Assembly (NCBI GenBank): GCA_043821705.1
Contig: JBDRCN010000001.1
Coordinates: forward strand, 8,851-72,850
Reading direction: 5' to 3'
DNA length: 64,000 bases
From: Candidatus Omnitrophota bacterium
Lineage (GTDB): Bacteria; Omnitrophota; Gorgyraeia; Gorgyraeales; Gorgyraeaceae
Made by a program: the position numbers and the translations under genes. Below are positions 312-58,844 of the stretch, piece after piece. A model generated the notes under the pieces. That model was not told the DNA's origin. It made no database searches and saw nothing but the letters and a program-made list of their open reading frames with translations. Numbering within the stretch: position 1 is the first letter of the stretch; each line of letters begins with the position of its first letter.

Positions 312-399
312 CACAATAATAATTTAAATGCCTCTTTCAGATACAGTTAAACAAAGTCGCGAACAAGCTCCTGAATAGCTTCTAACTATAAGTAAAAAG

Positions 400-2153: not shown

Positions 2154-2183
2154 AAGCGAAAAGTTGTATGACGCTATATAGTA

Positions 2184-2338: not shown

Positions 2339-4399
2339 CTAACGTATCTCTACGCCCAGCTTTTTTACAAGCGCTTCTTGTACTTTCATATGAAGAGCCT
2401 GGACATCTTCATCTTTCAGGGTTTTTTCATCCGAACGATATTCTACGCTATAAGCTAAACTCTTTTTGCCATCTTGTATCTGTTGGCCCTTATATATATC
2501 AAAGATGTCAATGGAAGTTACTAGCCCTCCTCCTTCAGCCCTTATGACATTAAATATGTTTTCAGCGCTTAGATCATTACTAGCGATCATCGATATATCT
2601 CTCTTCATGGAGGGATATTTAGGAAGTGCCTTGAACCTGGTAGGTATTACGTGATCTATTAGTTCTTCAAAATCTATCTCAGCAATATAAACCTTGTCCT
2701 TGATATCGAAGAACCTGGCTGTCTTTTCCTTGACCTCTCCGAGACTACCTATCTTGATATTCCCGATCTTTAAGTCTAAGGCCATGTCTTCCCTAAAGAT
2801 AGTGTACTCGCCTTTTTCCAGCTTATAGTCTTTCACACCTAAAGAGACCAAGAATTTTTCTACCACGCCTTTCATGTCGAAGAAATCTATCTCTCGAGAA
2901 TGTTCTTTCCAATTGCCAGGAGTATTCCCGAATATAGCCATAGAGACCATGTTTTTTTCTTTTATCTCGTTCTTGGCCCTGTCTATACTATAGACCTTAT
3001 TGATCTCAAAAAGTTTGACAAGAGAATTTCTTCTATTTATATTCCAGCTTAATACCTCGAGCATCTCTGCGACAAGGGTTGGCCTCATGAATGCCTGATT
3101 CGCACTTAATGGATTTTGTAAGCGAACTACATTGTCAAATGATATGCCCAATGTCTCAATGCTAGCACGACTCGTAAGAGTATAAGTGACTACTTCGTTA
3201 AGCCCGAGTCTTGTCAATATCTCTTTTGATCTTTTTTTCAAGGCAGTGAGTGTCTTCTTTTCTTCTTCGTATAACTTCCCTATAGAAAGTCTTGGCAGTT
3301 TTGAAGGTACCTTATCATAGCCATATATACGGACGATCTCCTCTATGAGATCAATATCTCTTTCCAGATCCTGCCTATATATAGGTACTTTTACTGTTAT
3401 CTTATTCTTTGTCTTCTTGGAGATCTTAAGATCTAATCCTGCTAAAGATGCAATAACATCTTTTCTACTGATATCTATCCCTAATATCCTGGGTATCTCG
3501 CCTAGATCTAAAGATATCTCTTTTTCTTTTAAGATCTTTCCTCCTACATCAGTAAGATTTCCTGAGCACCTAGCTTTGGCAATATTCTTTATCATCTCCT
3601 GCGCTCTCATACTAGCTGAATAGACCATTGCAGGATCCACTCCTCTTTCAAATCTATAGCTTGATTCAGATGCTAGAGCTAATTTTCGTTGTGTCTTTCT
3701 TACGCTGACTGGGTCAAAATATGCGCTCTCTAAAAATATTGTCTTGGTCTCTTCAGTGATCTCAGTGTCCAGGCCTCCCATAATACCTGCTACTGCAACT
3801 GGTTTTACATCATCAGCTATTATAAGCATTGTAGGGTCAAGCTCTCTTCTTACACCGTCAATAGTGGTAAGCTCTTCTCCTTTTCTAGCGCGCCTGACAA
3901 TGATCCTTTGTTTTTCTAATTTCTCCAAGTCAAATGCATGGAGGGGCTGGCCTGTCTCAAATAATACATAATTAGTTATATCAACTATATTATTTACGCT
4001 TCTTACTCCCATGGCATTCAGTCTCTCGACGAGCCATTCAGGAGAAGGCCCTACTTTTACATTTTTCATAATGCATCCTACATACCTAGGGCAGGCTTTT
4101 TTATCCTCTATCTCTACTTTTGCCTTGCCCCTGGCTGGACCCTTTTTCATGTAAGATTTTTTTATAGACGCTGGCAGATTAAGAGTCTTCTTAGTAGCAC
4201 TGGCTAGTTCTCTAGCTACACCTATAATAGACAGGCAATCAGGCCTATTGGGCGTGATCTCTATATCCATGACATGGTCTTTACCCGTCTCTAAAGAACC
4301 TTCTACTTCAAGGCCTGTCATGGTAAGAGCTTGTTTTATCTCTTCAAGCCCTGCTTTTATATGGACAAAATCCTTTAACCAGTTTAATGTAACTCGCAT
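2339..4399 (-). CDS. pheT: Phenylalanine--tRNA ligase beta subunit (no N-terminal OB/tRNA-binding domain)
   Basis: 686-aa ORF whose N-terminus is MRVTLNWLKDFV and which has B3/4, B5 and FDX-ACB domain signatures. Confidence 0.9.
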   Translation of the reverse strand: MRVTLNWLKDFVHIKAGLEEIKQALTMTGLEVEGSLETGKDHVMDIEITPNRPDCLSIIGVARELASATKKTLNLPASIKKSYMKKGPARGKAKVEIEDKKACPRYVGCIMKNVKVGPSPEWLVERLNAMGVRSVNNIVDITNYVLFETGQPLHAFDLEKLEKQRIIVRRARKGEELTTIDGVRRELDPTMLIIADDVKPVAVAGIMGGLDTEITEETKTIFLESAYFDPVSVRKTQRKLALASESSYRFERGVDPAMVYSASMRAQEMIKNIAKARCSGNLTDVGGKILKEKEISLDLGEIPRILGIDISRKDVIASLAGLDLKISKKTKNKITVKVPIYRQDLERDIDLIEEIVRIYGYDKVPSKLPRLSIGKLYEEEKKTLTALKKRSKEILTRLGLNEVVTYTLTSRASIETLGISFDNVVRLQNPLSANQAFMRPTLVAEMLEVLSWNINRRNSLVKLFEINKVYSIDRAKNEIKEKNMVSMAIFGNTPGNWKEHSREIDFFDMKGVVEKFLVSLGVKDYKLEKGEYTIFREDMALDLKIGNIKIGSLGEVKEKTARFFDIKDKVYIAEIDFEELIDHVIPTRFKALPKYPSMKRDISMIASNDLSAENIFNVIRAEGGGLVTSIDIFDIYKGQQIQDGKKSLAYSVEYRSDEKTLKDEDVQALHMKVQEALVKKLGVEIR

Positions 4400-4441: not shown

Positions 4442-4867
4442 TTACGGAGTAGTAATATCCGTAATAAGCCCGTCTTTAATAACTAGAGTTCTGGTATTTG
4501 TTATTAATGGGCCTATAACTACTTGTCGACTTGTTGTAATGCCTTGAGAATTGTCTCCTGAATAATAGTCTGCTGCTCTTACATATCCACTAGCAGTCAC
4601 ATCCCCACTAGCAGTTATAGCGCCACTAACTGTCAAGCTGCCAGGGTCGCCCGCATCTCCTATCAATACATCTCCTGGATTAGTAGTAGGATCCGGCGCA
4701 GCAGTATTAACACCTAATGTAACTGTCTGGAGTTGAGTGTACACCCCATGTGGCGATGGATAATAAGTTGTAAGCCGAAGCTCTTCTCTTGCCATAGTCT
4801 CCATGCCGAATGATAAAAGAACTGCTAAAGCCAAACAAGCTGTAAATATCTTTTTCTCTTTACTCAT
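4442..4867 (-). CDS. Hypothetical secreted Thr/Gly-rich protein (signal peptide)
   Basis: 141-aa ORF with an N-terminal hydrophobic signal. The local GC content is higher than the surroundings. Confidence 0.5.
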   Translation of the reverse strand: MSKEKKIFTACLALAVLLSFGMETMAREELRLTTYYPSPHGVYTQLQTVTLGVNTAAPDPTTNPGDVLIGDAGDPGSLTVSGAITASGDVTASGYVRAADYYSGDNSQGITTSRQVVIGPLITNTRTLVIKDGLITDITTP

Positions 4868-4891
4868 ATCCCCCTCCTTAAATGAGCACTT

Positions 4892-5060
4892 GAATTACAG
4901 TAAATTTATTTACTGTAATTCAATCTCCTCTGGTTAGCACCTCCCGAAGGTGCGAATTTAATCCCGCTCTTTTGGTAGCAACTACTAGCGTTACGGCCAA
5001 AAGGGCGGGATTAGTTCGGACAGTGACTTATGTTCACTCACTTCGTTCGTTCCATAAGTC
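4892..5060. repeat. Cluster of perfect palindromes (gaattacagtaaat/atttactgtaattc; aatcccgctcttttgg/ccaaaagggcgggatt; gtgacttatg/cataagtcac)
   Basis: Three strong inverted repeats lie in the 200-bp spacer between pheS and the upstream gene and are candidate terminators. Confidence 0.6.
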
Positions 5061-11069: not shown

Positions 11070-11121
11070 GGCCTGCCATCCGAAGCCAGACTTTCAAATC
11101 GCCTTTCGTAAAGGCGTAGGA
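11070..11121 (-). repeat. Repeat family D copy D1 (tcctacgccttt-CGAAAGGC-...-ctggcttcggatggc), immediately 3' of tRNA-Val
   Basis: Matches 36348-36399 (3' of tRNA-Gln) and 45661-45714 (3' of bamA). It contains the hairpin cgccttt-acg-aaaggcg. Confidence 0.7.
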
Positions 11122-11198
11122 TGGTGGGCTCAAGAGGACTCGAACCTCTGACCTCTTCCATGTCAAGGAAGCGCGCTATCCAACTGCGCCATGAGCCC
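11122..11198 (-). tRNA. tRNA-Val (anticodon GAC)
   Basis: Minus-strand cloverleaf with the anticodon loop ccttGACatgg and a T-arm ggttcgagtcc ending in CCA. Confidence 0.8.
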
Positions 11199-11199
11199 A

Positions 11200-11309
11200 T
11201 CAAATTTGTTCTACTTCGCTCTTCGACCTACTAATCGATGGTAGAGCTTCGTAGGAATCATTCTTCGAAGCCCCACCGGAATATTTTATACTCAAAGGGC
11301 GTAGAAGAA
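11200..11309 (-). repeat. Repeat family E copy E1 (~105 nt tRNA-trailer element)
   Basis: Its reverse complement aligns with 36534-36640 (ttcttcttcgccctttgagtataaaatactccggtggggcttcgaagaatgattcctacgaagc...). This alignment is why the six-frame ORFs 11200..11391 and 36482..36691 share the peptide ILLRPLSIKYSGGASKNDSYEA. Confidence 0.75.
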
Positions 11310-11397
11310 TGGTGCCGGGGGTGGGACTCGAACCCACAAGACCTTTTGGGCCACAGGATTTTAAGTCCTGCGTGTTTGCCAATTTCACCACCCCGGC
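11310..11397 (-). tRNA. tRNA-Leu (anticodon TAA), long variable arm
   Basis: Minus-strand sequence gccggggtggtgaaattggc...ggacTTAAaatcc...ggttcgagtcccacccccggcacca. Confidence 0.8.
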
Positions 11398-19198: not shown

Positions 19199-19278
19199 GT
19201 TATTCTCCTTGTAAGGGTAGCATTATAACACAATGCGTTTTATCGTCAAGAAAAAAATGGTTGCTTTACATCAAGGAA

Positions 19279-19290
19279 CGGGTCCTGTCC
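19279..19290. repeat. Family B terminal fragment (cgggtcctgtcc)
   Basis: Matches the B1/B2 terminus and lies adjacent to C1. Confidence 0.45.
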
Positions 19291-19309
19291 GCCTTAATAG
19301 CCACACCAA

Positions 19310-19492
19310 CCTAACCCTAGCCTGTGACCTTTGGCGCTGGAACACCGCGCCGTGTTCTACGGTTTAGAGCTCGCTCTACGAATAGAGCTTTCGCCTTTAG
19401 TCAGGCTCGATCTCGCTCTAAAGCCTTGAACACTTCATGTTTAAATACTACGGGATGCCGCTATGTTCCTGATGCGCCAAAGGCTCTCAGCC
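19310..19492 (+). mobile_element. Repeat family C copy C1 (~185 nt, 28-bp TIR cctaaacccagcctgtgacctttggcgc)
   Basis: About 90% identical to 53469-53660. Internal hairpins include gaacac-cgcgcc-gtgttc and ctcgctcta direct repeats. Confidence 0.85.
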
Positions 19493-19525
19493 TAGGTTTG
19501 GTTAGCATATAGCTATTAGCGGATG

Positions 19526-19803
19526 GCTTGGCTCATCCCTAGAAGCATCTTGAAAATTTAGAGCGGCCTGCCCGCCGAAGCTTTAGCGTAGGAGGGGCAC
19601 GGTTGATAAAGCGAAGTTTCCTGCTCTTACGCATTAGTTATTTGAAGATTATTGCACTGTAAAAGCTATTATTAATTGTATATCAGTAACCATGGTTCGC
19701 AGGGAACCAGCATATCTATTAATTATAAGGCTGGTTTCATGAAGCGCAGGATTCCCACGCTGGGGGAATCCAAGCGGTGCTGATAGGGGTGAGACAAGAC
19801 AGG
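19526..19803 (+). mobile_element. Repeat family A copy A3 (with ~150-nt internal insertion)
   Basis: The 5' and 3' conserved blocks are identical to A1/A2, and the middle is expanded (19563-19735). Confidence 0.8.
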
Positions 19804-19825
19804 CCGCTAATAAATATATTTTCCT

Positions 19826-19853
19826 TGAAATGGAAAAATCTTACTGTTATAAT
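19826..19853 (+). promoter_or_regulatory. Candidate sigma70 promoter for dnaA (TTGAAA-16/17-TATAAT)
   Basis: The sequence ttgaaatggaaaaatcttactgttataat ends about 10 nt before the dnaA ATG, which implies a near-leaderless transcript. Confidence 0.5.
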
Positions 19854-19862
19854 GTTTGACCT

Positions 19863-21203
19863 ATGGCAATAGACATAATAGATATATGGGATAAAATCCT
19901 GGCGCGCACAAAGGACGAGATAGGGGAAAGGGCTTTTGAGAACTGGTTCACCCAGACCAATCTCCAGACTTTAAACGATGACAGCATCGTTGTCGAGACC
20001 CCGTCTAATTTTATAAAAGATTGGATATACGACCATTACCGCGATGCATTGAACATTGCTATTCTAAAAACCATCGGTAAGATAGTCCCTGTAAAATTCG
20101 AAGTAAGGCCATCCAGCGCCCCTGGGAAAAACCGCAGCATTGAGAAAAATAATCCCCCAGCACCCCAATCCATCACTAAAAAAGCTTCTTATTTAAACCC
20201 AAGTTATACATTTGAAGGTTTTGTAGTAGGGTCTTCAAATCGTTTTGCGCACGCAGCTACAATGGCTATCGCAGAATCTCCTGCAAAAGCATACAACCCT
20301 TTGTTTATATACGGAGGGGTCGGGCTAGGAAAAACCCACCTTATGCAAGCTGCCTGCCATTATATCTCCGAGATGCACAAGGGGCTCAAGACGTTTTATA
20401 CTTCGAGCGAAAGCTTTACTAACGAATTGATAAACTCCATAAAAAATAGAACTTCTTCTAATTTCAGGGAAAAATACAGAAAAGTAGATGTCCTTCTTAT
20501 AGATGATGTACATTTTATTGCTGGGAAAGAATCCACCCAGGAAGAGTTTTTTCATACGTTTAATGCTCTTTACGACGCGCACAAACAGATCGTGCTTTCA
20601 AGTGATAGGCCGCCCAAGACCATTCCAGGCCTTGAAGAAAGGCTTGTCTCAAGGTTTGAATGGGGGCTCGTAACTGATGTACAGCCACCGGACCTCGAGA
20701 CTCGTATGGCTATCATAAATAAAAAAGCTGAAAAGACAAACGCCCAACTTCCTTCTGATGTGATGTACTTGATAGCTGAGAAGATCCGTACAAATATACG
20801 TGAGCTTGAAGGAGCTCTTATAAAGGTCATCGCCTATGCATCTCTCCAAAACAAAAAAATAGACCTGGCGCTTGCCCAAGATGTCTTAAAAGATGTGATA
20901 TCGGAAAAAGAAAAAAGAATATCGGTTGAACTCATCCAAAAAAAGGTCGCAGACTATTTTGGCATCAAGACCTCTGATCTTAAGGCAAAGAAGCGAAGTA
21001 GGCAGGTCGTCTACCCTAGGCAAATAGCTATGTATCTTACCAGGGAACTTACTAGTCTCACGCTCCCGGATATTGGCGCAAATTTTGGCGGCAGGGATCA
21101 TTCTACGGTCATACATTCTTGCGATAAGATACAGAAGGAATTGAAGAAGAGCCAGAATGTTAAGAATGTTATCAACCGCTTGACATTGGAGATAAATAGT
21201 TAA
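19863..21203 (+). CDS. dnaA: Chromosomal replication initiator DnaA
   Basis: 446-aa ORF with AAA+ Walker A (GGVGLGKTHL) and a C-terminal DnaA-box-binding HTH. Confidence 0.95.
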   Translation: MAIDIIDIWDKILARTKDEIGERAFENWFTQTNLQTLNDDSIVVETPSNFIKDWIYDHYRDALNIAILKTIGKIVPVKFEVRPSSAPGKNRSIEKNNPPAPQSITKKASYLNPSYTFEGFVVGSSNRFAHAATMAIAESPAKAYNPLFIYGGVGLGKTHLMQAACHYISEMHKGLKTFYTSSESFTNELINSIKNRTSSNFREKYRKVDVLLIDDVHFIAGKESTQEEFFHTFNALYDAHKQIVLSSDRPPKTIPGLEERLVSRFEWGLVTDVQPPDLETRMAIINKKAEKTNAQLPSDVMYLIAEKIRTNIRELEGALIKVIAYASLQNKKIDLALAQDVLKDVISEKEKRISVELIQKKVADYFGIKTSDLKAKKRSRQVVYPRQIAMYLTRELTSLTLPDIGANFGGRDHSTVIHSCDKIQKELKKSQNVKNVINRLTLEINS

Positions 21204-25184: not shown

Positions 25185-25362
25185 TGAGGCCATAACTTAC
25201 GGAGCACGAAGTGTGACGTAAGTTATTTGGCCGAACATACCCCACACCCAACATTTATTGTGTCTGTTTTAAGGGGTATTGAAAATAACTAAAACACCAC
25301 GCTCAAGCATTAACAACAAAATGATAAATGCTGGGTGTGGGGTTTAACTCGCGCATTGACTT
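25185..25362 (+). other. Structured gyrB-gyrA spacer (hairpin ataacttacg...cgtaagttat; long-range IR ccccacacccaac...ctgggtgtgggg)
   Basis: Inverted repeats were read directly from the sequence. Confidence 0.5.
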
Positions 25363-28300
25363 ATGTCGCATTTTATGCTCCATAAGCCAAGCGCTCGTAA
25401 AATGTACACACAAAATGAAAAATTAGTCCCAGTCTATATTGAAGATGAAATGAAGAATTCCTATATTACGTATGCAATGAGCGTAATAGTAGGAAGAGCT
25501 CTTCCTGATGTCAGGGATGGTCTAAAGCCAGTACATAGAAGGATCCTCTATGCAATGAGAGAGCTGGGGCTGGAACATAGCAAGGCTTATAAAAAATCAG
25601 CCAGGATCGTTGGAGAATGCTTTGTAAAAGATACTCTGGTATTGACACAAAAGGGCCTGGTCCCTATTCAGGAAATCGAGCGGGGCGACAAGGTATTCAC
25701 GCAAAACGCGGCAAGGAGTGTTAGCGAGTTATACGAGATGCCAAAGAGAGAACTCCTTAAAATCACACTGGAAAACGGTACCAGCAACATAGCTACATTT
25801 TCGCAAAAATTTAAGGTATTGAATAAAAATCTAGAGTTTGTATGGAAAGAGGCAAAGGAACTCAATAAAAATGATTATATTGTTATAAGAGCGCATTATC
25901 CTGAAATTAAAGATATGGCAGGTTTGAAGCGCTCGGCAGCAAGGCATCCGTTTTATTTGAATGAAGATATAGCGTATATTTTAGGGCTTTTAATATCAGA
26001 TGGCTGGATCGAGAGGCCCAACGGAAGGCAGCGGAACAGGATGTGCTTTTATTCTGCCAATAGAAAAGTTATGGAGAAAGTGAGTTCGATGTTCGAAAGA
26101 GCGTTTGGTTATAGGCCGAATATCGAGGAGAAGATACATAAAGGAACCACAAAGGACGGCAAGCCATTAAAGAAGGGATATTCAGTAAGGATTAATAGGC
26201 AGGCTATAAATGATTTCTTTGCGGCAAATTTTCACTTGGAAGGACTTAAGGCGAAAACCAAGATAATCCCGCAACAGATATTTGTTTCTCCAAAGAGAAT
26301 AATATTTGCTTTTGTTGCGGGGCTTCTTGAAGGAGATGGCAGCATTCATCGCGGAAGAAATGTTGTACATTATGGATCTATTTCAGAGAAATTGATAGAT
26401 GGTTTGGCAGTGCTTTTACAGCACCAGGGTATTTTTGGCAGGAAATACAAGGCAAGATCTTCAGCGTCTAGTAGTTATATAGGAGGCAGGCTAGTTGCAC
26501 GCAGAGAGGTTTTTTATAGCTTGGAATTCAGAAGCTCTAACGCATTACTATTAGCGTCCAATATTAATCTTGTTGATAAAAAGAAGAACGCCAGGCTGCG
26601 CAACCTTTTTACCAATAGAATAATTCCTTCGGGCCAGGATATTATACCTTATGGAGGGGCCAGGATATTTGAAGAACTTAGCGCAAGACATATAGGAGGC
26701 GGCTGGTACAAGGGGGTTAATGGCAGCAAATTTAAACAAGGCATAAAATATCCTGATGGAGCTAAGATAAGATATTCGCATAATCTTCTAGAAAAACCTT
26801 TGAGAAAATCTCAAGTTCTAGAATGGGGGATTAAAGAAAAATTAGAAAGATTAGGATCGCCCCTCTCTGTTTTTATTGACAATATAGTAGATAATAAAAT
26901 TTATTTCTCGAAAGTTTCATCGGTAGAAAAATCAGCCCCGCAAGTAACATACGATATCCAGGTTGAACAGGATCACGAGTTTATCGCAAACGGGATGATT
27001 TCTCATAATTGTCTTGGTAAATATCATCCTCATGGAGATACAGCAGTATATGACTCGCTAGTCAGGATGGTGCAGGATTTTTCATTGAGGTATCCTTTGG
27101 TGGATGGACAGGGGAACTTCGGGTCTGTCGACGGTGATGCTCCTGCAGCAATGAGGTATACTGAAGCTCGCATGGCATCTATCGCGGATGAGATGCTCTC
27201 GGATATTGACAAAGGCACAGTAGATTTTACTCCTAATTTCGATGAAACACTGGAAGAACCGACTGTCCTGCCTGCGAAATTGCCAGGGCTATTAGTAAAT
27301 GGCTCCAGCGGTATAGCTGTGGGCATGGCAACTAATGTCCCACCACATAATCTATCTGAGATAGTGGATGCTATTGTAAAATTGATCAGCGACCCAGGGT
27401 GTTCTATTAAAGATCTGATGAAAATTGTTAAAGGGCCTGATTTTCCAACAGGAGGGATCATCTGCGGCAGAGAAGGCATTAAAAAAGCTTATGAAACAGG
27501 CAGAGGCCTTTTAAAGCTTCATGCAAAAGCAGCAATAGAGCAGCAAAAAGGCAACAAAGAAGCTATTATTATTACAGAGATCCCTTACCAAGTAAATAAA
27601 TCAAAGCTCATTGAGAATATGGCAAGCCTTGTACAGGATAAAAAAATAGAAGGCATTGCTGACATAAGGGACGAGTCCGATAAAGATGGTATGAGGATAG
27701 TAGTCGATCTAAAGAGAGACCAGAACGCACAGATCGTTTTAAACCAACTCTATAAACGTACCCAGATGGAGATGACCTTTGGCGTCATCACATTAGCATT
27801 AGTGGATCTCAGGCCAAAGGTATTGAACTTAAAAGAAGTACTTGAATTATACATAAAACATAGAATTGAGATCATAAAAAGAAGAACACAATTCGAACTG
27901 AATAAAGCTGAAAGAAGAGCTCATATATTAGAAGGGCTGAAAATAGCAATAGACAATCTCACTAAGATCATAAAGACCATAAGAGAATCAAAAGATCCTA
28001 AGATAGCCAAAGACGCATTAATGAAAAATTTTGATCTTTCAGAGGTCCAGGCGCAGGCTATTTTAGAGATGCAGCTTCAGCGTCTTACTGCACTTGAGAG
28101 AGGGAAGATAGAAAAAGAATACCTGGAGCTATTAAAGAGAATAGAGATGTTAAAATCTATATTAAAGAGCGAGAAGAAGATATTAGAGATCATAAAGGAC
28201 GAAGCATTAGAGGTTAAGAAAAAATACGGGGATGAACGTAGAACTGAAATAGTAGCGAGGCAGGAAGAGATCGAGATAGAAGACCTGATAGCAGAAGAAG

Positions 28301-29223
28301 ACATGGTTATCACAATAAGCCATTCTGGTTATATAAAACGCCTCCCAACAGGTTCTTACAAAAAACAAAAACGAGGGGGAGTAGGCGTAACAGGCATGGA
28401 TATGAAAGATGAAGATTTTATCGAGCATCTTTTTATCGCTTCTACTCATGAATATATACTATTTTTTACTAATCAAGGGAGAGTGCATTGGTTAAAGGTA
28501 TATGAGATACCACAGGCTTCCCGCTCCGGAAGAGGCAAGGCAGTAGTAAACTTATTACAGCTTTCATCAGGGGAAAAGATCTCTTCTTATGTCAGGGTAA
28601 AAGAATTCAAAGAAGGATTATATCTTGTGATGGCTACCAAGAACGGCCTTATCAAGAAGACAGATCTGATGGCTTATTCAAACCCAAGAAAAGGCGGGAT
28701 AATAGGCATTACTATCGAGAAGGATGACGAACTTATAGAAGTTAAGTGGACAGATGGCAGCCATGAAATAATGTTGGCGTCCAAAGAAGGAAAGGCTATC
28801 TGTTTTTCAGAAAAGCAAGTCAGGGATATGGGTAGAGGCGCAAAAGGAGTAAAAGGGATAAAGCTTGGTAAGAAGGATGAGCTTATAGCAATGGACATAG
28901 CGAGAAAAGACGCGACTGTCTTAACAGTTGCTTCTCAAGGTTTTGCAAAGCGTACATCTATAAACGAATATAGAAAACAGTCTAGGGGCGGCAAGGGTGT
29001 AAAGAATATAAGCGTTACGAGTAAAACCGGAGAAGCTGTAGGTGTATTGATGGTACATGACAATGACGAGCTTATGGTCATGACTGTGAAAGGAATGATC
29101 GTAAGGTTCGCTGTGAAAGATGTCCGCGCTACAGGCAGAAGCACCCAGGGGGTCCGCATAATAAAACTTGATCCTGGCGACAAGGTAGCAAATGTTGCTC
29201 GAGTGATCCCAGAAGAAGAATAG
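25363..29223 (+). CDS. gyrA: DNA gyrase subunit A containing an in-frame intein (mature GyrA is 822 aa)
   Basis: 1286-aa ORF. Extein motifs: [44 protein letters not shown]. The true start is probably M14 (25402). Confidence 0.95.
25618..27009 (+). other. GyrA intein (464 aa) with LAGLIDADG homing-endonuclease domain
   Basis: Begins with Cys ([10 protein letters not shown]) right after RIVGE and ends in ...ISHN followed by +1 Cys ([10 protein letters not shown]). Two LAGLIDADG blocks are present: [11 protein letters not shown] and [10 protein letters not shown]. Confidence 0.9.
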
Positions 29224-36273: not shown

Positions 36274-36347
36274 TGCCTGGTAGTGTAATGGTAACACATC
36301 AGCTTTTGGAGCTGAGTTTCTAGGTTCGAATCCTAGCCGGGCAGCCA
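36274..36347 (+). tRNA. tRNA-Gln (anticodon TTG)
   Basis: Sequence tgcctggtagtgtaatggtaacacatcagctTTTGgagctga...ggttcgaatcctagccgggcagcca. Confidence 0.8.
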
Positions 36348-36399
36348 TCCTACGCCTTTCACGAATAGCGAATAGAACGTCTGGCTTCGGATGGCGAGG
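36348..36399 (+). repeat. Repeat family D copy D2 (immediately 3' of tRNA-Gln)
   Basis: The sequence tcctacgcctttcacgaatagcgaatagaacgtctggcttcggatggcgagg aligns with D1 and D3. Confidence 0.7.
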
Positions 36400-36512: not shown

Positions 36513-36533
36513 CGAATCCTAGCCGGGCAGCCA
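36513..36533 (+). repeat. 21-nt duplicate of the tRNA-Gln 3' end (cgaatcctagccgggcagcca)
   Basis: Identical to 36327-36347 but without the upstream T-stem or the remainder of a tRNA. The result is direct repeats 166 bp apart, resembling attL/attR. Confidence 0.7.
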
Positions 36534-36640
36534 TTCTTCTTCGCCCTTTGAGTATAAAATACTCCGGTGGGGCTTCGAAGAATGATTCCTACGAAGCCAT
36601 ACCGTCGATTAATAAGTTGAATGGCGTAGTAGAACATATT
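36534..36640 (+). repeat. Repeat family E copy E2
   Basis: Aligns with the reverse complement of 11200-11309. Confidence 0.75.
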
Positions 36641-43325: not shown

Positions 43326-45659
43326 ATGAAAATAAAAAGTTTTTTTAGTGCAACTTGCTTGGTTTTATTTATCTCGCTGATACTTTCTATCAGTTTCTGC
43401 CATACCTCCTTTTCCGAAGAAGAATATGCAAACAAGATCATAAAATATGTAAGCGTAAAAAACAATAAGACTATTTCTGAGGCCAAGATCTTATCAAAGC
43501 TGAAGACCAAAAAGGGAGAACTCTTTCTAGAAAAGGTAGTAAATGAAGATGTAAAAAGATTATACCTTTTAGGGTTCTTTAGTGATGTAGAGGTCTCTAT
43601 AGAAGAGGTCTATGATGGCATAGGGATTGTTTTTATAGTCACAGAAAAATCCCCATTAAGTTCGATCACCTTTAAAGGCAACAAGGTGTATAACGCACAG
43701 AAATTGTTAGCTGTTGTAAAATCCAAATCAAGCGAACTAGTGGATGAGAAAAAGCTTAGAAAGGATTCTGAAGCAATAGAGGATCTTTATAAAAGAGCTG
43801 GGTATCCCTGGATCACTGTACACCACGAGTTAAAGTCTATTAACGAACAAGGGGAAGGCGAGGTAGTGTTTGTAATAGATGAAGGACCAAAGGCAGTGGT
43901 GAGGGGGATAAGCATACTTGATAATGTGGCTTTCAGTGACAAGAGGATCTTGAAAATAATAAAAAGCAGGACCTCTGGGTTCTTTAGGTCAGGTGTTTAC
44001 AAGCAGGATGTGATAGAAGATGATATGGAGCGTATCAAGGCATTTTATAGGAATGAGGGTTTTCTTGATGTAGAGTCAAATTACGAATTATTGTCCCATG
44101 AAAAAAGAAGCAAAAAGTGGATAGAACTTGTTATGAGGATAGATGAGGGAAAGCAATATATAACAGGAGAGACTAAGATAACTGGGAATTCAATATTTTC
44201 CCAAGAAGAACTGAAAAGCCTTCTTAAATTAAGAAGAGATGATGTGTTTACTGAGAGTGCGTTACATAAAGAAGTCACGACGCTTCAGGAGAATTATTTT
44301 GACAAAGGCTATATCATGGCAAAGGTCAAACCTGACACTGTCCTCAACATAGAGACCGATAAAGTGGATGTTATCTATAATATTTTTGAAGGAGAGGTAT
44401 GCTACGTCAACAAGGTCAATATACAAGGGAACACCAAGACAAAAGATATTGTTGTCAGGAGAGAACTAAGGCTCAATCCAGGGGACAGGTATGACGGGAA
44501 TAAACTTAGAAAGAGTAAAGAACGCCTTTATAATCTGGGATTTTTTGAGGACATAGCGTTCAATATAGACGACACAGAAACATCCAATAAAAAAGATATG
44601 GAGATAGAAGTAAAGGAGTCCAAGACAGGAGAATTTAGTTTCGGTGGTGGATTTTCATCTATAGATAAGCTGATCGGATTTATTGAAATTGAGCAGAAAA
44701 ATTTTGATCTCTTTAACTTTCCTACTTTTACCGGTGATGGGCAAGACCTTAAGCTAAGAGCAGAACTCGGAAGTGTGCGCAAGAATTATCTATTAAGCTG
44801 GACAGAGCCATGGATATTTGATCATCCTGTTTCATTCGGTTTCGACCTCTATGCTACAGAGAGGAGCAGGAGTGGTTCTACTGGCTATGCATATGATGAA
44901 GCAAAAGAAGGGGTAACGCTAAGGCTTGCGAAATGGTTCAATGATTTCCTGAGAGGGGACCTTTCTTATAGGCTAGAGTCAGTTGACATATCAGACCTGT
45001 CTGTAGACGCATCCCAGTCGCTGAAAGATGAAGCAGGTAAGAATACTATTAGCAGTGTCTTTATGCAGCTTACAAGAGATACAAGGGACAATAGATTTAA
45101 TCCTTCAAAAGGGCTTCTTGTGAGTGGTGCTTTTGAAGTAGCAGGGGGGGCCATAGGAGGAGATAAAGATTTTGCAAAATTCTCAGATTCTATAAGCCGT
45201 TATTCTACAATAGGTCCTTTTGTCTTAGAGTTAAAGGGGAGAAGCGGGGTGGTCACATCTTTTGGCGACTCGACAACAGTCCCTATATATGAAAGATTTT
45301 TTGCAGGAGGTACTTACACTGTCCGTGGCTATAAAGAAAGAGACATAGGCCCTAAAGATGTTTCAGGAGACCCTGTTGGTGGCGGAACAATGGTAGTGGG
45401 TAATGCAGAGCTGACTATGTCGATAATAGAAAATTTAAAAGGTGCTATATTTCTTGATGCTGGAAATGTTTGGGCTACACCTGACAGCAAGCCAAAGGAA
45501 GGCATGTTGACTAGAGGTATAAAAGTTGGTACTGGCGTAGGCGTGAGGATAAAGACTCCTATAGGGCCAGTAAAGCTTGATTATGGATTCCCCATGAATC
45601 CTGATGATAATCAGGAGGATACAGGTAGGTTCCATTTTAGTATGAGTAGAGGATTTTAA
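43326..45659 (+). CDS. bamA: Outer membrane protein assembly factor BamA
   Basis: 777-aa ORF with a signal peptide, five POTRA repeats and a C-terminal barrel ending HFSMSRGF. Confidence 0.9.
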   Translation: MKIKSFFSATCLVLFISLILSISFCHTSFSEEEYANKIIKYVSVKNNKTISEAKILSKLKTKKGELFLEKVVNEDVKRLYLLGFFSDVEVSIEEVYDGIGIVFIVTEKSPLSSITFKGNKVYNAQKLLAVVKSKSSELVDEKKLRKDSEAIEDLYKRAGYPWITVHHELKSINEQGEGEVVFVIDEGPKAVVRGISILDNVAFSDKRILKIIKSRTSGFFRSGVYKQDVIEDDMERIKAFYRNEGFLDVESNYELLSHEKRSKKWIELVMRIDEGKQYITGETKITGNSIFSQEELKSLLKLRRDDVFTESALHKEVTTLQENYFDKGYIMAKVKPDTVLNIETDKVDVIYNIFEGEVCYVNKVNIQGNTKTKDIVVRRELRLNPGDRYDGNKLRKSKERLYNLGFFEDIAFNIDDTETSNKKDMEIEVKESKTGEFSFGGGFSSIDKLIGFIEIEQKNFDLFNFPTFTGDGQDLKLRAELGSVRKNYLLSWTEPWIFDHPVSFGFDLYATERSRSGSTGYAYDEAKEGVTLRLAKWFNDFLRGDLSYRLESVDISDLSVDASQSLKDEAGKNTISSVFMQLTRDTRDNRFNPSKGLLVSGAFEVAGGAIGGDKDFAKFSDSISRYSTIGPFVLELKGRSGVVTSFGDSTTVPIYERFFAGGTYTVRGYKERDIGPKDVSGDPVGGGTMVVGNAELTMSIIENLKGAIFLDAGNVWATPDSKPKEGMLTRGIKVGTGVGVRIKTPIGPVKLDYGFPMNPDDNQEDTGRFHFSMSRGF

Positions 45660-45660
45660 C

Positions 45661-45714
45661 CCTCCTACGCCTTTGCGAAAGGCTATTCGAAAGGCTGGCT
45701 TCGGAGGGTAGGCG
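45661..45714 (+). repeat. Repeat family D copy D3 (immediately 3' of bamA)
   Basis: The sequence cctcctacgcctttgcgaaaggctattcgaaaggctggcttcggagggtaggcgg aligns with D1 and D2. Confidence 0.7.
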
Positions 45715-49480: not shown

Positions 49481-50276
49481 AATAGGTCTTTTAGCAGGCA
49501 ATGGAAGATTCCCTATACTCTTTGCTAAAGAAGCAAAGAAAAAAGCTGTAGAAGTAATAGCTATAGCTATAAACGAAGAGACTTCAAAGGACCTTTCAAA
49601 ATATGTAGATAAGATATATTGGCTAGGAGTAGGAGAGCTAGAAAAACTTTTTATAATCCTCGCTCAAGAAAAACTCACCTCGATAATAATGGCAGGGCAG
49701 GTAAGGCATAAGCTTATCTTCGATAAAAGTATAAAACTTGACTCTAAGATGTCAGAGCTTTTAGGGAGCGTAAAGAATAAAAAGACAGATTCTCTTATAG
49801 GCGCAGTAGCTGGTATCTTGGAGTCCAAAGGCATTAAAGTACTTGATTCAACATCATTTTTAAGCGACTATCTTCCAAAAAAAGGACTATTGACAAGAGC
49901 TCCTTTAGACAAAGATATATTGTCTGATATTGATTTTGGACTGAATATTGCAAAAGAGATAGCAGGCCTGGATATTGGGCAGAGTATTGTCGTAAAAGAT
50001 AAAACAGTCCTGGCAGTAGAGAGTATTGAAGGCACTGATGAAGCTATAAAAAGGGGAGCTCATTACGGCAGAGAAGGTATTGTAGTTATCAAGGTAAGTA
50101 AACCTGGCCAGGATATGAGGTTCGATGTGCCAGTGATCGGGCCAGAGACCATAAATCTATTAAGTGAAGTGAAAGCAAAGGCGATCTCAATAGAAGCTAA
50201 TAGAACACTTATAATCGATAAGGATGAAACATTAAAGTTAGCGAATGATCTAGGCATAGGGATAATTGCTGTATGA
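49440..50276 (+). CDS. lpxI: UDP-2,3-diacylglucosamine hydrolase LpxI (DUF1009)
   Basis: 278-aa ORF with GLLAGNGRFP N-terminus; an alternative GTG start lies at about 49470. Confidence 0.75.
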   Translation: MRIQREGCLEVTNRIGLLAGNGRFPILFAKEAKKKAVEVIAIAINEETSKDLSKYVDKIYWLGVGELEKLFIILAQEKLTSIIMAGQVRHKLIFDKSIKLDSKMSELLGSVKNKKTDSLIGAVAGILESKGIKVLDSTSFLSDYLPKKGLLTRAPLDKDILSDIDFGLNIAKEIAGLDIGQSIVVKDKTVLAVESIEGTDEAIKRGAHYGREGIVVIKVSKPGQDMRFDVPVIGPETINLLSEVKAKAISIEANRTLIIDKDETLKLANDLGIGIIAV

Positions 50277-50983
50277 CAAAGAAAAAAAAGAAAGTTAGAG
50301 TGACAGACACTATAGAGGCTCTTTCAAAGATCTCTAGAGCTATATCAAGTGAATTATATCTAGAAGACATTCTAAAGCTCATAGTAACTGTTACAGCTGA
50401 AGTAATGAATTCAAGGATCTGCACTCTTATGCTTCTTGATGAGAAGAAAGAACATTTAGTGATAAGAGCCACCCAGAGTATAAGCGAAGAGTATATAAAG
50501 AAAAACCCTTTAAGAAGGAACGAAGGCATAGCATGGGAAGTTGTAAAGAAAAACAAACCTTTAGTAGTAGCAGATGTATTGAAGGAAAAGGAATATAAAT
50601 ATAAAGATATTGCTAAAAAAGAAGGACTCGTGTCCCTTCTATGTGTACCAATGGCAGTTAAAAATAGAGCGATAGGAGTGCTTAACTGTTATACTTCAAA
50701 GCCTCATAAATTTTCAAAGACAGAGATAAATGTTCTTATAAGCGTAGCTAATCAAGCAGCCATATCTATCGAGAATACAGAACTCTTAGTAAAGACAAAA
50801 GTAATACAGGAAGAACTTGAGACGAGAAAAGTCGTTGAGAAAGCAAAAGGTATCTTGATGAAAGAAGAAAATCTTTCAGAAGAAGAGGCTTTTCGAAAAA
50901 TACAGAAATTCAGCATGGATAGGCGTAAGCCCATGAAAGAAGTTGCTGAGGCAATAGTAATAATGCATGACATGAAGCAATGA
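50273..50983 (+). CDS. GAF-ANTAR RNA-binding antitermination regulator
   Basis: The N-terminal GAF domain is followed by a C-terminal ANTAR signature (ETRKVVEKAKGILMKEENLSEEEAFRKIQKFSMDRRKPMKEVAEAIV). Confidence 0.8.
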   Translation: MTKKKKKVRVTDTIEALSKISRAISSELYLEDILKLIVTVTAEVMNSRICTLMLLDEKKEHLVIRATQSISEEYIKKNPLRRNEGIAWEVVKKNKPLVVADVLKEKEYKYKDIAKKEGLVSLLCVPMAVKNRAIGVLNCYTSKPHKFSKTEINVLISVANQAAISIENTELLVKTKVIQEELETRKVVEKAKGILMKEENLSEEEAFRKIQKFSMDRRKPMKEVAEAIVIMHDMKQ

Positions 50984-51381
50984 AAAAGAAAACATACAAA
51001 AACCTACAAAATAATATACGCACTTTAAAGACGCCTAATATAGATGTCTGGAAGAATCAATACTCTGATAAGGATTATGTTATTGAACTCGAGAACCGTG
51101 AATTTACTTGTGTATGCCCTAAGACAGGTCTTCCTGATTTTGCAACTATAACTTTAAGATATAGTCCAGATAAAACTTGTATTGAATTGAAGTCTTTAAA
51201 GATGTATATGCTTAGTTTTAGGAATATGGGCATATTCCATGAACACGTGATAAACAGGATATTGGATGATCTTGTCAAGGCCTGTAAGCCACGCTATGTA
51301 TATATTAAAGGAGAGTTTGGTGTAAGAGGTGGGATAAAAACAGTAGTTGAAAGTGAATATAAGGGGAGTGGAGCATGTTAG
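50980..51381 (+). CDS. queF: NADPH-dependent 7-cyano-7-deazaguanine reductase
   Basis: 133-aa ORF with the Cys motif FTCVCPKTGLPDF. Confidence 0.85.
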   Translation: MKKKTYKNLQNNIRTLKTPNIDVWKNQYSDKDYVIELENREFTCVCPKTGLPDFATITLRYSPDKTCIELKSLKMYMLSFRNMGIFHEHVINRILDDLVKACKPRYVYIKGEFGVRGGIKTVVESEYKGSGAC

Positions 51382-52709
51382 TAAAAACTAAAAAAGATGT
51401 CATAAAATTAGTAAAAAAACATAATGTTAGATTTATAAAACTCTGGTTCACAGATGTTCTGGGGTTTCAAAAAGGTGTTTCTATTACAAGGAGTGAACTT
51501 GAGAGGGCTCTTTATGATGGTATGGGATTTGATGGTTCATCCATAGAAGGGTTCGCCCGTATTGAAGAAAGCGATATGGTAGCAATGCCTGATGTATCGA
51601 CTTTTCAGATGATACCTTGGAGGTCTAAAAAAGAAGGGCTTTCTGCAAGGATGTTCTGTGATGTGCTCCAGCCAAATGGAAAACCTTTTGAAGGAGACCC
51701 AAGATTTGTATTAAAGAAGAATTTGAAGTTAGCAAATGACATGGGATATACGAATTATTATGTAGGGCCTGAACTGGAGTATTTTTATTTCAACAACCCC
51801 AAGAATACTATCATATTGGACAGGGGAGGATATTTTGACCTTACGCCTTTAGATGTGGCGCAAGATCTGAGAAGAGATACAGTCTTGATGCTGGAAAAGA
51901 TGGGGATAGACGTAGAATATTCTCATCATGAAGTAGCTACATCACAGCACGAGATAGATCTTAGATATAATGATGTGCTCAAGATGGCAGACAATGTAAT
52001 GACCTATCGCATGGTCGTAAAAGAAGTAGCGAGGAAGAATGGGGCCTACGCGACATTTATGCCTAAGCCGATACACGGGATAAATGGAAGTGGTATGCAT
52101 GTACACCAATCTTTATTTAAAGGCAAGAAAAATGCTTTTTTTAGCAAGACTGACAAGAGGCATCTTTCTAACGAAGCCAAATATTTTATAGCAGGCATAT
52201 TAAAGCATGCACCTGAGATGGCAGCAGTAACGAATCAGTGGGTCAATTCTTATAAGAGACTTATCCCTGGTTATGAAGCGCCAGTATACATATGCTGGGC
52301 ACAGATGAATAGAAGTGCTCTTGTGAGAGTACCTATGTATAAGCCTGGGAAAGAACATGCTACTAGGATAGAATTCCGCTCGCCTGACCCAGCTTGCAAT
52401 CCTTACCTTGCGTTTTCAGTCATGCTTAGGGCTGGATTAGAAGGAATAAAGAATAAATATAAATTACAGGAACCTTCAGAAGATAATATTTATCATATGA
52501 CAGAGGAGGCAAGAGAAAAGGCCAACATAAAGTCTCTGCCTGAAGATCTATACGAAGCTATCAAGATCGCAGAAAAAAGCCAGCTTTTAAAGGACGCATT
52601 AGGAGATAAGGTCTTCAAATACTTCATAAGAAATAAATATATGGAATGGGACGAGTATAAGGCTCAAGTATCCCAATATGAAATAGACAAATATCTCCCT
52701 ATACTTTAA
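51375..52709 (+). CDS. glnA: Glutamine synthetase (copy 1)
   Basis: 444-aa ORF with GS beta-grasp and catalytic domains. Confidence 0.9.
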   Translation: MLVKTKKDVIKLVKKHNVRFIKLWFTDVLGFQKGVSITRSELERALYDGMGFDGSSIEGFARIEESDMVAMPDVSTFQMIPWRSKKEGLSARMFCDVLQPNGKPFEGDPRFVLKKNLKLANDMGYTNYYVGPELEYFYFNNPKNTIILDRGGYFDLTPLDVAQDLRRDTVLMLEKMGIDVEYSHHEVATSQHEIDLRYNDVLKMADNVMTYRMVVKEVARKNGAYATFMPKPIHGINGSGMHVHQSLFKGKKNAFFSKTDKRHLSNEAKYFIAGILKHAPEMAAVTNQWVNSYKRLIPGYEAPVYICWAQMNRSALVRVPMYKPGKEHATRIEFRSPDPACNPYLAFSVMLRAGLEGIKNKYKLQEPSEDNIYHMTEEAREKANIKSLPEDLYEAIKIAEKSQLLKDALGDKVFKYFIRNKYMEWDEYKAQVSQYEIDKYLPIL

Positions 52710-52721: not shown

Positions 52722-53459
52722 ATGAAAAAACTTATCACATTTTCACTAATAATATTATCTTGCCTGATCTTGTATTCTACGATAGATTTTAGCAAGAATG
52801 GCCATGCATTAGAAGGGATATTAAATAGCAGCTCAGGGGAATTACCTTTCTCAAAAGGCGAGAGATTAATGTATGATGTTAAGTTGAACGGTGTAACGAT
52901 AGGCAGCTCGATACTTACATTTTACGGAGAAAAAGAGATAAATGGAAAGGCTGCGCATCACATTAATTTTTATACCCTTATCCCATCTCTTAAGGATTCA
53001 GAAGATATTTACGGAGATACTGAAAGTTTTTTACCAATGGAGGTTCATAGAAACCTTAAGAAGAAGCTGGGATTTAATGAGACAATAATAGAGGTATATG
53101 ATCAGGAGAATTTTAGGATAGATATCACCTCAAAGAGCAAGCTTCGCAGCAGAAAACTTTCTATTGAAAGAGATGCTCCGGTCCACAATCCCATACTCTT
53201 AAGTTATTTCTGTAGAGCTAAAGCGAGCTTTACTAAAGAAGATAGCTTCGACATTACTTTATCAAGGACAAAGTTTCAAGTTTATTATGATGGGAAGAAA
53301 GAGATAAAAACACCTTTAGGAAAACAGCTTGCCCATGTATTTACAAGTGACCCCAAGAAGTTTACGCTCTACCTAAGTGATGATGATAGGAAGACCCCAC
53401 TCATGATAGATAGCCCTGGCACCCTCGGCTACTCCCTTGTAATCCGCTCCATCGAATAA
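52722..53459 (+). CDS. Hypothetical secreted protein
   Basis: 245-aa ORF with an N-terminal signal/TM segment. Confidence 0.5.
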   Translation: MKKLITFSLIILSCLILYSTIDFSKNGHALEGILNSSSGELPFSKGERLMYDVKLNGVTIGSSILTFYGEKEINGKAAHHINFYTLIPSLKDSEDIYGDTESFLPMEVHRNLKKKLGFNETIIEVYDQENFRIDITSKSKLRSRKLSIERDAPVHNPILLSYFCRAKASFTKEDSFDITLSRTKFQVYYDGKKEIKTPLGKQLAHVFTSDPKKFTLYLSDDDRKTPLMIDSPGTLGYSLVIRSIE

Positions 53460-53468
53460 CTACCTTAA

Positions 53469-53660
53469 CCTAAACCCAGCCTGTGACCTTTGGCGCTGGA
53501 ACACCGCGCCGTGTTCTACGGTTTAGAGCTCGCTCTACGAATAGAGCTTTCGCCTTTAGTTAGGCTCGATCTCGCTCTAAAGCCTTGAACACTTCATGCT
53601 TAAATATTACTGGATGCCGCTATGTTCCTTATGCGCCAAAGGTCACAGGCTGGGTTTAGG
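53469..53660 (+). mobile_element. Repeat family C copy C2 (perfect 28-bp TIRs)
   Basis: cctaaacccagcctgtgacctttggcgc ... gcgccaaaggtcacaggctgggtttagg. Confidence 0.85.
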
Positions 53661-53728
53661 TTGCTATGGCTTTAAGCTATAATTACATTGACTCAATGGC
53701 TGGGGTGTGGTATATTTATAATATAAGG

Positions 53729-53799
53729 GCACAAAGTATGTGCTATAAGAGATAATGAAGTCCTTTTTGGTAGTAAGAGACTACTGAAAAGGACTTTTT
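53729..53799 (+). promoter_or_regulatory. Leader L1: palindrome GCACAAAGTATGTGC plus intrinsic terminator (gtccttttt...aaaaggac-TTTTT) upstream of sigma-like gene
   Basis: The palindrome is at 53729-53743 and the terminator at 53760-53799. The block gatAATGAAgtccttttt is paralogous to the glnA2 leader. Confidence 0.6.
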
Positions 53800-53811
53800 G
53801 CTTTAGAGAAG

Positions 53812-56858: not shown

Positions 56859-56867
56859 GACTTGCTG

Positions 56868-57044
56868 GCTGTCTTGGCCTGGCTCTATCAGCACCGCTCG
56901 GATTTCCCCAGCGAGGAAATCCTTCGCTTCATGATAATTTTCGCTCCCCGCCATTTTGTAACGTCTATTTGATAGTAGTTAAAATGGCGGGACCATGCCC
57001 GCTCAAATTCTCAAGATGCTGCTAGAGCCAGACCAAGCCAGCCT
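56868..57044 (-). mobile_element. Repeat family A copy A4 (minus orientation, long GC hairpin variant)
   Basis: The reverse complement reads ...ctagcagcatcttgagaatttgagcgggca...gagcgaaaattatcatgaagcgaaggatttcctcgctggggaaatccgagcggtgctgatag... Confidence 0.85.
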
Positions 57045-57515: not shown

Positions 57516-58844
57516 ATGGTTATGACAAAGAAAGATGTATTGAAGCTGGTAAAGGAAAATGACGTAAAATTTATCAGGCTTTGGTTCACAGATCTCTTAG
57601 GCCAGGTTAAAAGCTTTGCAATATTAGACAGTGAATTGGAAGGCGCTTTAGAAAATGGTATGGGATTTGATGGTTCATCTATTACAGGCTACCAGGATAT
57701 TGAAGAAAGCGATATGATCGCTCTTCCTGACCCTAGCACATTTTGTTTGCTTCCATGGAGGCCAGGAGAAAAAGCTGTAGCAAGGATGATATGCGATGTT
57801 CTAACGCCAGACAAACAGCCTTATGAAGGTGACCCAAGGTATGTTTTGAAAAAGGCCCTAAAAAGAGCATCTGATATGGGATTTGATCATTTTTATCTAG
57901 GGCCAGAATTAGAGTTTTTCTATTTCAGGAATGACTCAGGCACGGAGATCCTTGATAAAGGAGGGTATTTTGACCTTACGACCTTGGATGTGGCAAGTGA
58001 TCTAAGAAGAGAGACAGTCTTGGCTTTAGAGAAGATGGGTATCAAGATAGAGTATTCTCATCATGAAGTCGCACCGTCTCAACATGAAGTTGACATGAGA
58101 TACGATGATGCATTAAAAATGGCAGATAATGTCATTACCTATAGAATAGCAGTAAAAGAGATCGCTAGTAAATTCGGGGTGTACGCTACTTTTATGCCTA
58201 AACCTATTTTTGGACAGAATGGTTCAGGTATGCACACTCACCAGTCACTATTTAAAGGTGAGAAAAACGCATTTTTTGATAAAAGCACAAAGGATAACCT
58301 GTCTGATACAGCGCGTTCCTACATAGCAGGTCTATTAAAACATTCAAAAGAGATCTGTTCGATATTTGCTCAAACTACAAATTCTTATAAGAGGCTAGTG
58401 CCTGGTTACGAAGCGCCTGTATATGTCGCATGGTCTCGCAGAAACAGGTCAGCTCTTGTCAGAGTTCCTTTATATCATCCTGGTATGGAAAAAGCTACAA
58501 GGTGTGAATTCAGGGCATGTGATCCAGCATGTAACCCATATCTCACATTTGCAGCAATGCTTCACGCAGGATTAGAGGGAATAGAGAAAGGCTATAAATG
58601 CCCTGATGCAATGGAAGGCAATCTATATCATCTAAGCGACAATGAAAGAAAAGCGCGAGGTATAGAGACCTTACCTGATAACTTAGGCCAGGCTATTAAT
58701 ATTACAGAAGGAAGTGAACTAGTTAAAAAGACCCTTGGGACACATATTTTCCCGAGATTCATAGAGCTGAAGAAAAAGGAATGGGATAGTTACAGGATAC
58801 AGGTACCTCAGTACGAATTAGATAAGTATTTATCTATTCTTTAA
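57516..58844 (+). CDS. glnA: Glutamine synthetase (copy 2)
   Basis: 442-aa ORF, about 70% identical to copy 1. Confidence 0.9.
   Translation: MVMTKKDVLKLVKENDVKFIRLWFTDLLGQVKSFAILDSELEGALENGMGFDGSSITGYQDIEESDMIALPDPSTFCLLPWRPGEKAVARMICDVLTPDKQPYEGDPRYVLKKALKRASDMGFDHFYLGPELEFFYFRNDSGTEILDKGGYFDLTTLDVASDLRRETVLALEKMGIKIEYSHHEVAPSQHEVDMRYDDALKMADNVITYRIAVKEIASKFGVYATFMPKPIFGQNGSGMHTHQSLFKGEKNAFFDKSTKDNLSDTARSYIAGLLKHSKEICSIFAQTTNSYKRLVPGYEAPVYVAWSRRNRSALVRVPLYHPGMEKATRCEFRACDPACNPYLTFAAMLHAGLEGIEKGYKCPDAMEGNLYHLSDNERKARGIETLPDNLGQAINITEGSELVKKTLGTHIFPRFIELKKKEWDSYRIQVPQYELDKYLSIL

Follow-up and report, generated by a model that had tools for sequence, protein, structure and literature searches.

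The question raised by this locus is whether the short inverted-repeat element that occurs twice in the window, the whole 64-kb stretch of DNA analysed here, is a mobile element, and with which kinds of small intergenic repeats it should be compared. The two copies lie in direct orientation, 34 kb apart. They had been described in an earlier note as ~90% identical sequences of ~190 nt at 19310-19492 and 53469-53660; the presence of two copies stands, while the unit itself proves to be longer. A window-wide repeat search gave an ungapped 188-nt match between 19296-19483 and 53455-53642 with 94% identity, and gapped blastn a match of 225 nt between 19296-19520 and 53455-53677 (89.8% identity, E = 1e-69). 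According to the gapped alignments copy A, located in the rpmH-dnaA spacer, occupies 19295-19520 (+ strand; full extent ~224-226 nt), and copy B, homologous to it over its full ~224 nt, occupies 53454-53677 (+ strand). When the four half-elements were aligned, all four ends were homologous out to about TAATAGCC, i.e., over ~46 nt, with the inner block CCTTTGGCGC conserved in every end and GTGACCTTTGGCGC in three ends only. Because the homology, both between the copies and among the four halves, passes the perfect terminal inverted repeat (TIR) by ~13-16 nt, the unit is one of ~224 nt and not of ~190 nt. The flanks of the two copies are unrelated, and in the alignment the homology ends with the palindrome. 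For a TIR-derived 19-mer, AGCCTGTGACCTTTGGCGC, three occurrences were counted in the window, as compared with 0.01 expected from shuffled sequences.

Perfect TIRs of 28 bp had been ascribed to both copies; they are perfect in copy B only, where their length is 30 bp. The left TIR of copy B (AACCTAAACCCAGCCTGTGACCTTTGGCGC, 30 nt, 53467-53496) is 100% complementary to the right one (53633-53662), the distance between their outer edges being 196 nt. Its core (53497-53632, + strand, 136 nt) contains two nested inverted repeats, one of 11 nt (53498-53508/53618-53628) and one of 19 nt (53511-53529/53574-53592), which are found in the core of copy A (19338-19473, + strand) at 19339-19349/19459-19469 and 19352-19370/19415-19433. 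The left TIR of copy A (19308-19337) is identical to that of copy B at 28 of 30 positions, while its right TIR (19474-19504) is decayed by an indel and several substitutions and matches that of copy B in 26 of 32 aligned columns, so that gap-free perfect pairing of the ends of copy A is limited to 10 nt (CCTTTGGCGC/GCGCCAAAGG). The internal details noticed earlier were confirmed: copy A has the hairpin GAACAC-CGCGCC-GTGTTC at 19340 and copy B at 53499-53516, and the direct repeats CTCGCTCTA occur twice per copy, at 19370 and 19412 and at 53529 and 53571. The entire unit is an imperfect palindrome: when compared with its reverse complement, it is 65% identical over 210 nt. The predicted folding energy of the 196-nt unit of copy B is -103.4 kcal/mol for the + strand and -106.3 kcal/mol for the - strand (z about -13 relative to dinucleotide shuffles), and since both strands fold equally, a DNA palindrome is indicated rather than a strand-specific RNA. 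Both copies are intergenic, and the GC content of the element (48-49%) is higher than that of the window (39%).

The element is, as had been supposed, without coding capacity. Its internal open reading frames are of at most 62 aa, and the longest of them has no homologue in a collection of 5.8 billion proteins, a search that was also meant to catch other copies translated by gene callers. Neither copy is covered by any Rfam 15 match at the gathering threshold; with E <= 1, two matches far below their gathering scores were obtained around copy B, one of which clips the outer right end of the repeat, while none covers 53467-53662. No sigma-70-like promoter was predicted within either copy, and the only intrinsic-terminator pattern inside the element, a weak one with a stem of 5 bp, belongs to copy A, where it lies in the decayed right arm. 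Several other assignments were considered and dropped. A sigma-54 promoter in the TIR (TGGCGC-N5) was rejected by eye, its -12 element being missing; ATAGCCACA, in the outer end of copy A, fits a DnaA box at seven of nine positions, which was judged a chance resemblance; a retron or CRISPR nature was set aside since none of the 40 window ORFs scanned has an RT or cas domain, and a tRNA-derived origin since neither copy was matched in tRNA or Rfam searches.

Taken together, these features make us moderately confident that the element is a small, non-autonomous, TIR-bounded foldback, a piece of MITE-like selfish DNA, and that it represents a new, unclassified family specific to this Omnitrophota lineage. 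Prokaryotic MITEs have been defined as sequences of 50-800 bp or 50-500 bp, with TIRs of at least 10-15 bp, target-site duplications (TSDs) of 2-10 bp, and no transposase gene (PMC11602168, PMC10969869). The element agrees with these definitions in its size, in its TIRs (30 bp and perfect in copy B, imperfect in copy A), and in its non-coding nature, whereas agreement in TSD and copy number is not demonstrable. The MITE reading implied earlier is upheld in part, by the size, the long TIRs, the absence of coding sequence, the intergenic location, the presence of more than one copy, and the position of copy A within a block that relatives lack, but not by a shared TSD of 2-9 bp or by a transposase gene in the window. 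The mobility of the element is only partly demonstrated.

Copy A is situated between divergently oriented genes: yidC, rnpA, and rpmH on the - strand, and dnaA, dnaN, dciA, gyrB, and gyrA on the + strand, of which dnaN, dciA, and gyrB were named from synteny with annotated relatives. The rpmH/dnaA layout indicates that this copy adjoins the region of the replication origin; the sign of GC skew switches around 19-21 kb. The DnaA protein encoded at 19863-21203 is 100% identical to that of a Candidatus Omnitrophota MAG (NCBI MFH1782026.1; DUF3108 protein, MFH1782056.1), and the next best DnaA is only 79% identical, indicating that no close relative has been sampled. With the use of DnaA we reached three related Omnitrophota contigs: L010 (GCA_043814965.1), L019 (Logan), and L020/L021. 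The distance between rnpA and dnaA, including rpmH, is 242-288 bp in these three relatives as compared with 801 bp in the window, and the rpmH-dnaA spacer is of 99 bp in L010, where rpmH was called, as compared with 664 bp in the window. Multiple alignment shows that in the relatives the conserved ...TATCGTCAAGAAAAA, the -35 region of rpmH on the - strand, directly adjoins the dnaA promoter, ATTTTNCTTGAAA...TGTTATAATG...ATG. In the window, the two are separated by a lineage-specific block of ~556 nt (19259-19814), delimited by alignment of the spacer with those of the three relatives and composed of 36 nt, copy A (19295-19520), a repeat of a second family (family 2; 19519-19811), and ~5 nt. 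The family-2 repeat is unrelated to copy A and abuts it on the right. Promoter-like sites at 19249-19222 (- strand) and 19825-19853 (+ strand) remain intact outside the block.

The copy A block is thus a filled site relative to three empty ones, although the comparison is made across genera and not within a population. As the relatives are distant (DnaA 75-79% identical), the insertion is deduced from different genera and was not seen as a polymorphism. Since the relatives are without the element, copy A is not needed for origin function, and its location, upstream of each of the two divergent promoters, means that it is not required by any known transcript. A compact promoter spacer near the origin has taken up ~0.55 kb of inserted repeats with both promoters retained. 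To the left of copy A, the stretch 19259-19294 (TGGTTGCTTTACATCAAGGAACGGGTCCTGTCCGCCT) resembles the -35 region and spacer of the relatives' dnaA promoter (TTGCTT...GGTCCTTGT). It may have arisen when part of the target region was duplicated in the course of insertion, the intact dnaA promoter being to the right of the block.

The search for further copies was negative in every collection. No additional full copy, solo end, or diverged copy was found in the 64-kb window, nor any copy in ~188 kb of fetched loci, including ~110 kb of related Omnitrophota contigs, and an nhmmer profile built of the four half-elements recovered only the four known arms from the window and all the fetched loci. Scans of GTDB genome contigs, JGI metagenome contigs, and IMG/VR, seeded with 18-19 nt of the TIR and, for IMG/VR, additionally with 22 nt of the core, returned matches of up to 34 nt in about the number expected by chance, some of them inside coding regions. 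Distant-mode blastn against plasmid and phage collections gave no match. By sequence comparison, then, the element has no relatives in any collection searched, and our literature search for MITEs or inverted repeats in Omnitrophota found nothing. A scan of TSDs at all boundary offsets detected no direct repeat at the homologous boundaries of both copies, the edges being blurred by the degenerate outer part of the TIR and the right flank of copy A being occupied by another repeat. A TA dinucleotide is readable at both ends of copy A and has no counterpart in copy B. No transposase, integrase, or Y1 enzyme was identified among the 40 window ORFs scanned with Pfam, the remaining ORFs being housekeeping genes syntenic in the relatives. 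It had been suggested that the cognate transposase would be of IS630/Tc1-like or IS5-like type; nothing points to IS630 or IS5 in particular.

If the element is of the MITE-like kind, a transposase encoded elsewhere in the genome would bind its inverted ends of ~30 bp and would shift the unit into AT-rich intergenic DNA. Copy B, with its perfect 30-bp ends, could still be mobile, while copy A, with the decayed right end, is probably a fossil. This genome appears to tolerate such elements, as the window contains several other intergenic repeat families.

Among the known systems, the Correia element, a MITE of Neisseria whose target duplication is TA, is similar in being intergenic and non-coding, in its long TIRs, and in the long hairpin that is formed upon transcription. 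There is no sequence similarity between the two, and the element described here is known in two copies, with no TSD seen and no internal promoter predicted, whereas Correia elements are present in more than 100 copies per genome and carry sigma-70-like promoters and an IHF site (PMC10969869). TIR duplexes of Correia elements in mRNAs are cut by RNase III (PMC10969869). Elements of the ERIC/IRU type in Enterobacteriaceae resemble our unit in that the entire unit is an imperfect palindrome located in transcribed intergenic DNA near the 3' ends of genes. However, their sequence is unrelated, they are shorter (about 127 bp), and we found no enterobacterial or plasmid match. At 3' ends, ERIC changes mRNA decay (PMC10969869). 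The TIMEs, Tn3-derived inverted-repeat miniature elements (PMC4133298), share with the element a size of a few hundred bp and unusually long TIRs of 30-40 bp. The ends of the element read AACCTAAACCC... or TAATAGCC..., in contrast, and no 5-bp TSD was found. Ends of the Tn3 family start with GGGG, and their TSDs are of 5 bp.

The site of copy B differs from that of copy A in its relation to transcription. Its first bases supply the final codon and the stop (TAA, 53457-53459) to a DUF3108 gene (ORF 52722-53459), which closes a co-directional block of bamA, ompH, lpxD, lpxC/fabZ, lpxA, lpxI, a GAF-ANTAR gene, queF, glnA, and DUF3108 (the genes from bamA to lpxI were named from synteny with relatives). 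In the relatives found with the use of the DUF3108 protein, the gene order upstream is kept, while downstream there are genes for DUF2490 and a Na/H exchanger, or for PHO4, and from these relatives an empty site of copy B could not be reconstructed. This change of order downstream of DUF3108 indicates that copy B marks a synteny breakpoint, and it separates a gene block that is conserved from a nitrogen-assimilation cluster that is variable and includes a second glnA. The placement of copy B immediately upstream of the leader of the nitrogen genes, as reported in the earlier note, proved correct: a promoter-like site, TTGACT-17-TATATT (53688-53716), begins 11 nt past its right end. Beyond this site there is a leader, which contains a terminator-like hairpin (53757-53797), and then come a LuxR-type ORF, a Gcw_chp-family ORF, amtB, and glnB. 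As no terminator was predicted between the stop codon of DUF3108 and copy B, the latter should be co-transcribed with glnA-DUF3108. Its transcript would then contain a perfect RNA duplex of 30 bp, and such a duplex, if cut by RNase III by analogy with the Correia element, could set the 3' end or the stability of the glnA-DUF3108 mRNA.

Certain features around copy B deserve mention in their own right. Within 53688-53811, the promoter-like site is followed by a leader which, just before the LuxR-type ORF, contains two hairpins with loops starting with AAG, namely GCACA-AAGTA-TGTGC and the long terminator-like stem at 53757-53797. The gene for an antiterminator-type regulator, GAF-ANTAR, is located 3 kb upstream (50273-50983), and the leader may act on the nitrogen cluster as an attenuator under ANTAR control. 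The two glutamine synthetase paralogues (51375-52709 and 57516-58844), which have a nucleotide identity of 67.5% over 1.09 kb, flank the cluster of the LuxR-like ORF, the Gcw_chp-family ORF, amtB, and glnB. The borders of this cluster are formed by copy B and, at the opposite end, by a family-2 repeat, and two sampled relatives are without it at the corresponding position.

The position of copy B and the distribution of differences between the copies bear on an alternative that we hold to be rather unlikely, namely, that the element is a functional structured RNA or DNA module, with a conserved core closed by a long stem, which was duplicated to two sites and would act in cis, for example by stabilising the 3' end, by offering a site for RNase III processing, or by insulating transcription downstream of glnA-DUF3108. 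The divergence is concentrated in the ends. The cores of the two copies are identical at 131 of 136 positions (96%), the left TIRs at 28 of 30, and the right TIRs at 26 of 32, while in the outer 16 nt the identity is 10 of 16 and 12 of 16 on the respective sides; altogether the ends differ at 18 of 94 positions and the core at 5 of 136 (Fisher p = 2e-4). Such end-heavy divergence is not what neutral decay of a dead transposon predicts, and a conserved core with a variable closing stem and ends speaks for a structured module. Possibly, the core is constrained or homogenised; other possible readings are that a preferred target accounts for the outer 16 nt, which would then not belong to the mobile unit, or that the ends of copy A decayed once this copy became immobilised.

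Further support for a structured module comes from the predicted fold, in which four of the five core substitutions fall at unpaired positions, and from one TIR pair that in copy A is changed from C-G to T-A on both sides. The start of copy B at a stop codon, where a terminator is expected and no other is predicted, can be read in the same direction, and the 11 compensatory pairs among the four copies of the family-2 repeat, which adjoins copy A, indicate that structured repeats do exist in this genome. On the other hand, most stem changes of copy A break pairs instead of compensating, two copies give almost no statistical power, and the equal folding of both strands points to a symmetry of DNA. 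Moreover, copy A has no promoter of its own and lies upstream of both flanking ones, and is therefore probably untranscribed; related genomes are without the element at this site; and no Rfam family matches it. A more particular form of this proposal, in which the core with its faster-evolving stem is one of several Omnitrophota-specific structured intergenic repeats, the family-2 repeat being another, with a role in RNA processing, insulation, or protein binding, seems to us improbable. If this were so, such repeats, located at the ends of operons and in regions upstream of promoters, would form a hitherto undescribed class of cis-acting elements in a phylum without cultured members.

The MITE-like foldback was also weighed against the possibility that the unit is not a classical TIR transposon but a REPIN-like repeat, or an extragenic palindrome of another type, which was dispersed by a non-DDE mechanism such as the action of RAYT/Y1 enzymes (IS200/IS605-type) on hairpin DNA, recombination, or gene conversion, which we regard as quite unlikely. 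REPINs, i.e., REP doublets mobilised by RAYT, are likewise hairpin-forming extragenic repeats and have no TSD, and the organisation of our entire unit as a foldback with nested inverted repeats, the apparent co-evolution of its arms at one position, and the failure to find a consistent TSD, the absence of which is expected under Y1-type mobilisation, are all compatible with such an origin. However, REPINs are about half of ~200-225 nt, the size of the element, and this we counted against the assignment. Its arms of 30-46 nt are not short REP-type hairpins that fold on themselves, no Y1_Tnp or RAYT gene was found among the window ORFs scanned, and the copy number, two here, is low as compared with tens to hundreds.

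Least probable is that there is no element at all and that chance similarity, local segmental duplication, or an artefact of MAG assembly is responsible: while the source is a metagenome-assembled genome with just two copies, the 225-nt match at 90% identity (E = 1e-69 within the window), the end of homology at the palindrome with unrelated flanks, and the fold z-score of -13 effectively exclude it, and as ~10% of positions differ, the copies are not a collapsed or duplicated read artefact.

The MITE-like reading, which we prefer, places the element among repeats that are common in bacteria and commonplace in architecture; it would be one more of them, in a phylum known only from metagenomes. 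Repeat-rich intergenic DNA of this kind can break or mis-join MAG assemblies.

The family-2 repeat is present in four copies, at 398-556 (+), 2181-2341 (+), 19519-19811 (+, with an internal insertion of ~130 nt), and 56862-57032 (-). Its core is highly conserved (CTAGAAGCATCTTGAAAATT ... TTCATGAAGCGnAGGATTnCC..GGnAATCC.AGCGGTGCTGATAG), while the outer closing stem varies between the copies yet stays paired; RNAalifold predicts 40 pairs, 11 of which show compensatory double changes. Three copies are located right after stop codons (of a rarA/mgsA-like ORF, pheT, and glnB), each in antisense orientation to the given gene. No Rfam match was obtained for this repeat, which looks more like a structured element than like a plain TIR transposon.

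The gyr genes downstream of copy A show two further peculiarities. GyrA (25363-29223, +) is of 1286 aa, as compared with 808-811 aa in three relatives, and its N-terminal part contains an inserted intein splicing domain and LAGLIDADG homing-endonuclease domains (Pfam). The gyrB-gyrA spacer (25185-25362) is of 178 bp, as compared with 2-130 bp in relatives, and is associated with a 63-nt imperfect inverted repeat (25196-25258/25324-25386). A 59-nt stretch of this spacer resembles positions 557-615 of the relative L018, just after a bamA fragment, and the repeat may represent another small palindromic insertion family.

Other repeats are connected with tRNA genes. A hairpin repeat of ~50 nt, CCATCCTACGCCTTT...GTCTGGCTTCGGATGG, occurs at 11071-11125, 36345-36396, and 45659-45713, after the genes for tRNA-Val and tRNA-Gln and after bamA, respectively. 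A 118-nt repeat is found at 11203-11319, after tRNA-Leu, and at 36523-36640, after a duplicated 25-nt 3' end of tRNA-Gln (36327-36351/36513-36537). These repeats either are of a terminator-like type or have been left behind by insertion targeted at tRNA genes. Two more families of short intergenic repeats are an AT-rich palindrome, AGTTGTTAGTTTTTAGTT...AAAAACTAAAAACTGACAACT (11400-11475/41363-41453), and a heptamer-rich tract, GTGATTCGTAATCC... (9269-9312/37921-37964).

The ORF at 4442-4867 (-, 141 aa), between pheS and pheT, is the only one in the window without a Pfam match, and by inspection of its hydrophobic, signal-peptide-like N-terminus its putative product looks like a small secreted protein. 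Just upstream of this ORF there is a near-perfect palindrome of 34 nt (4890-4923), and more long hairpins follow the stop codon of pheS.
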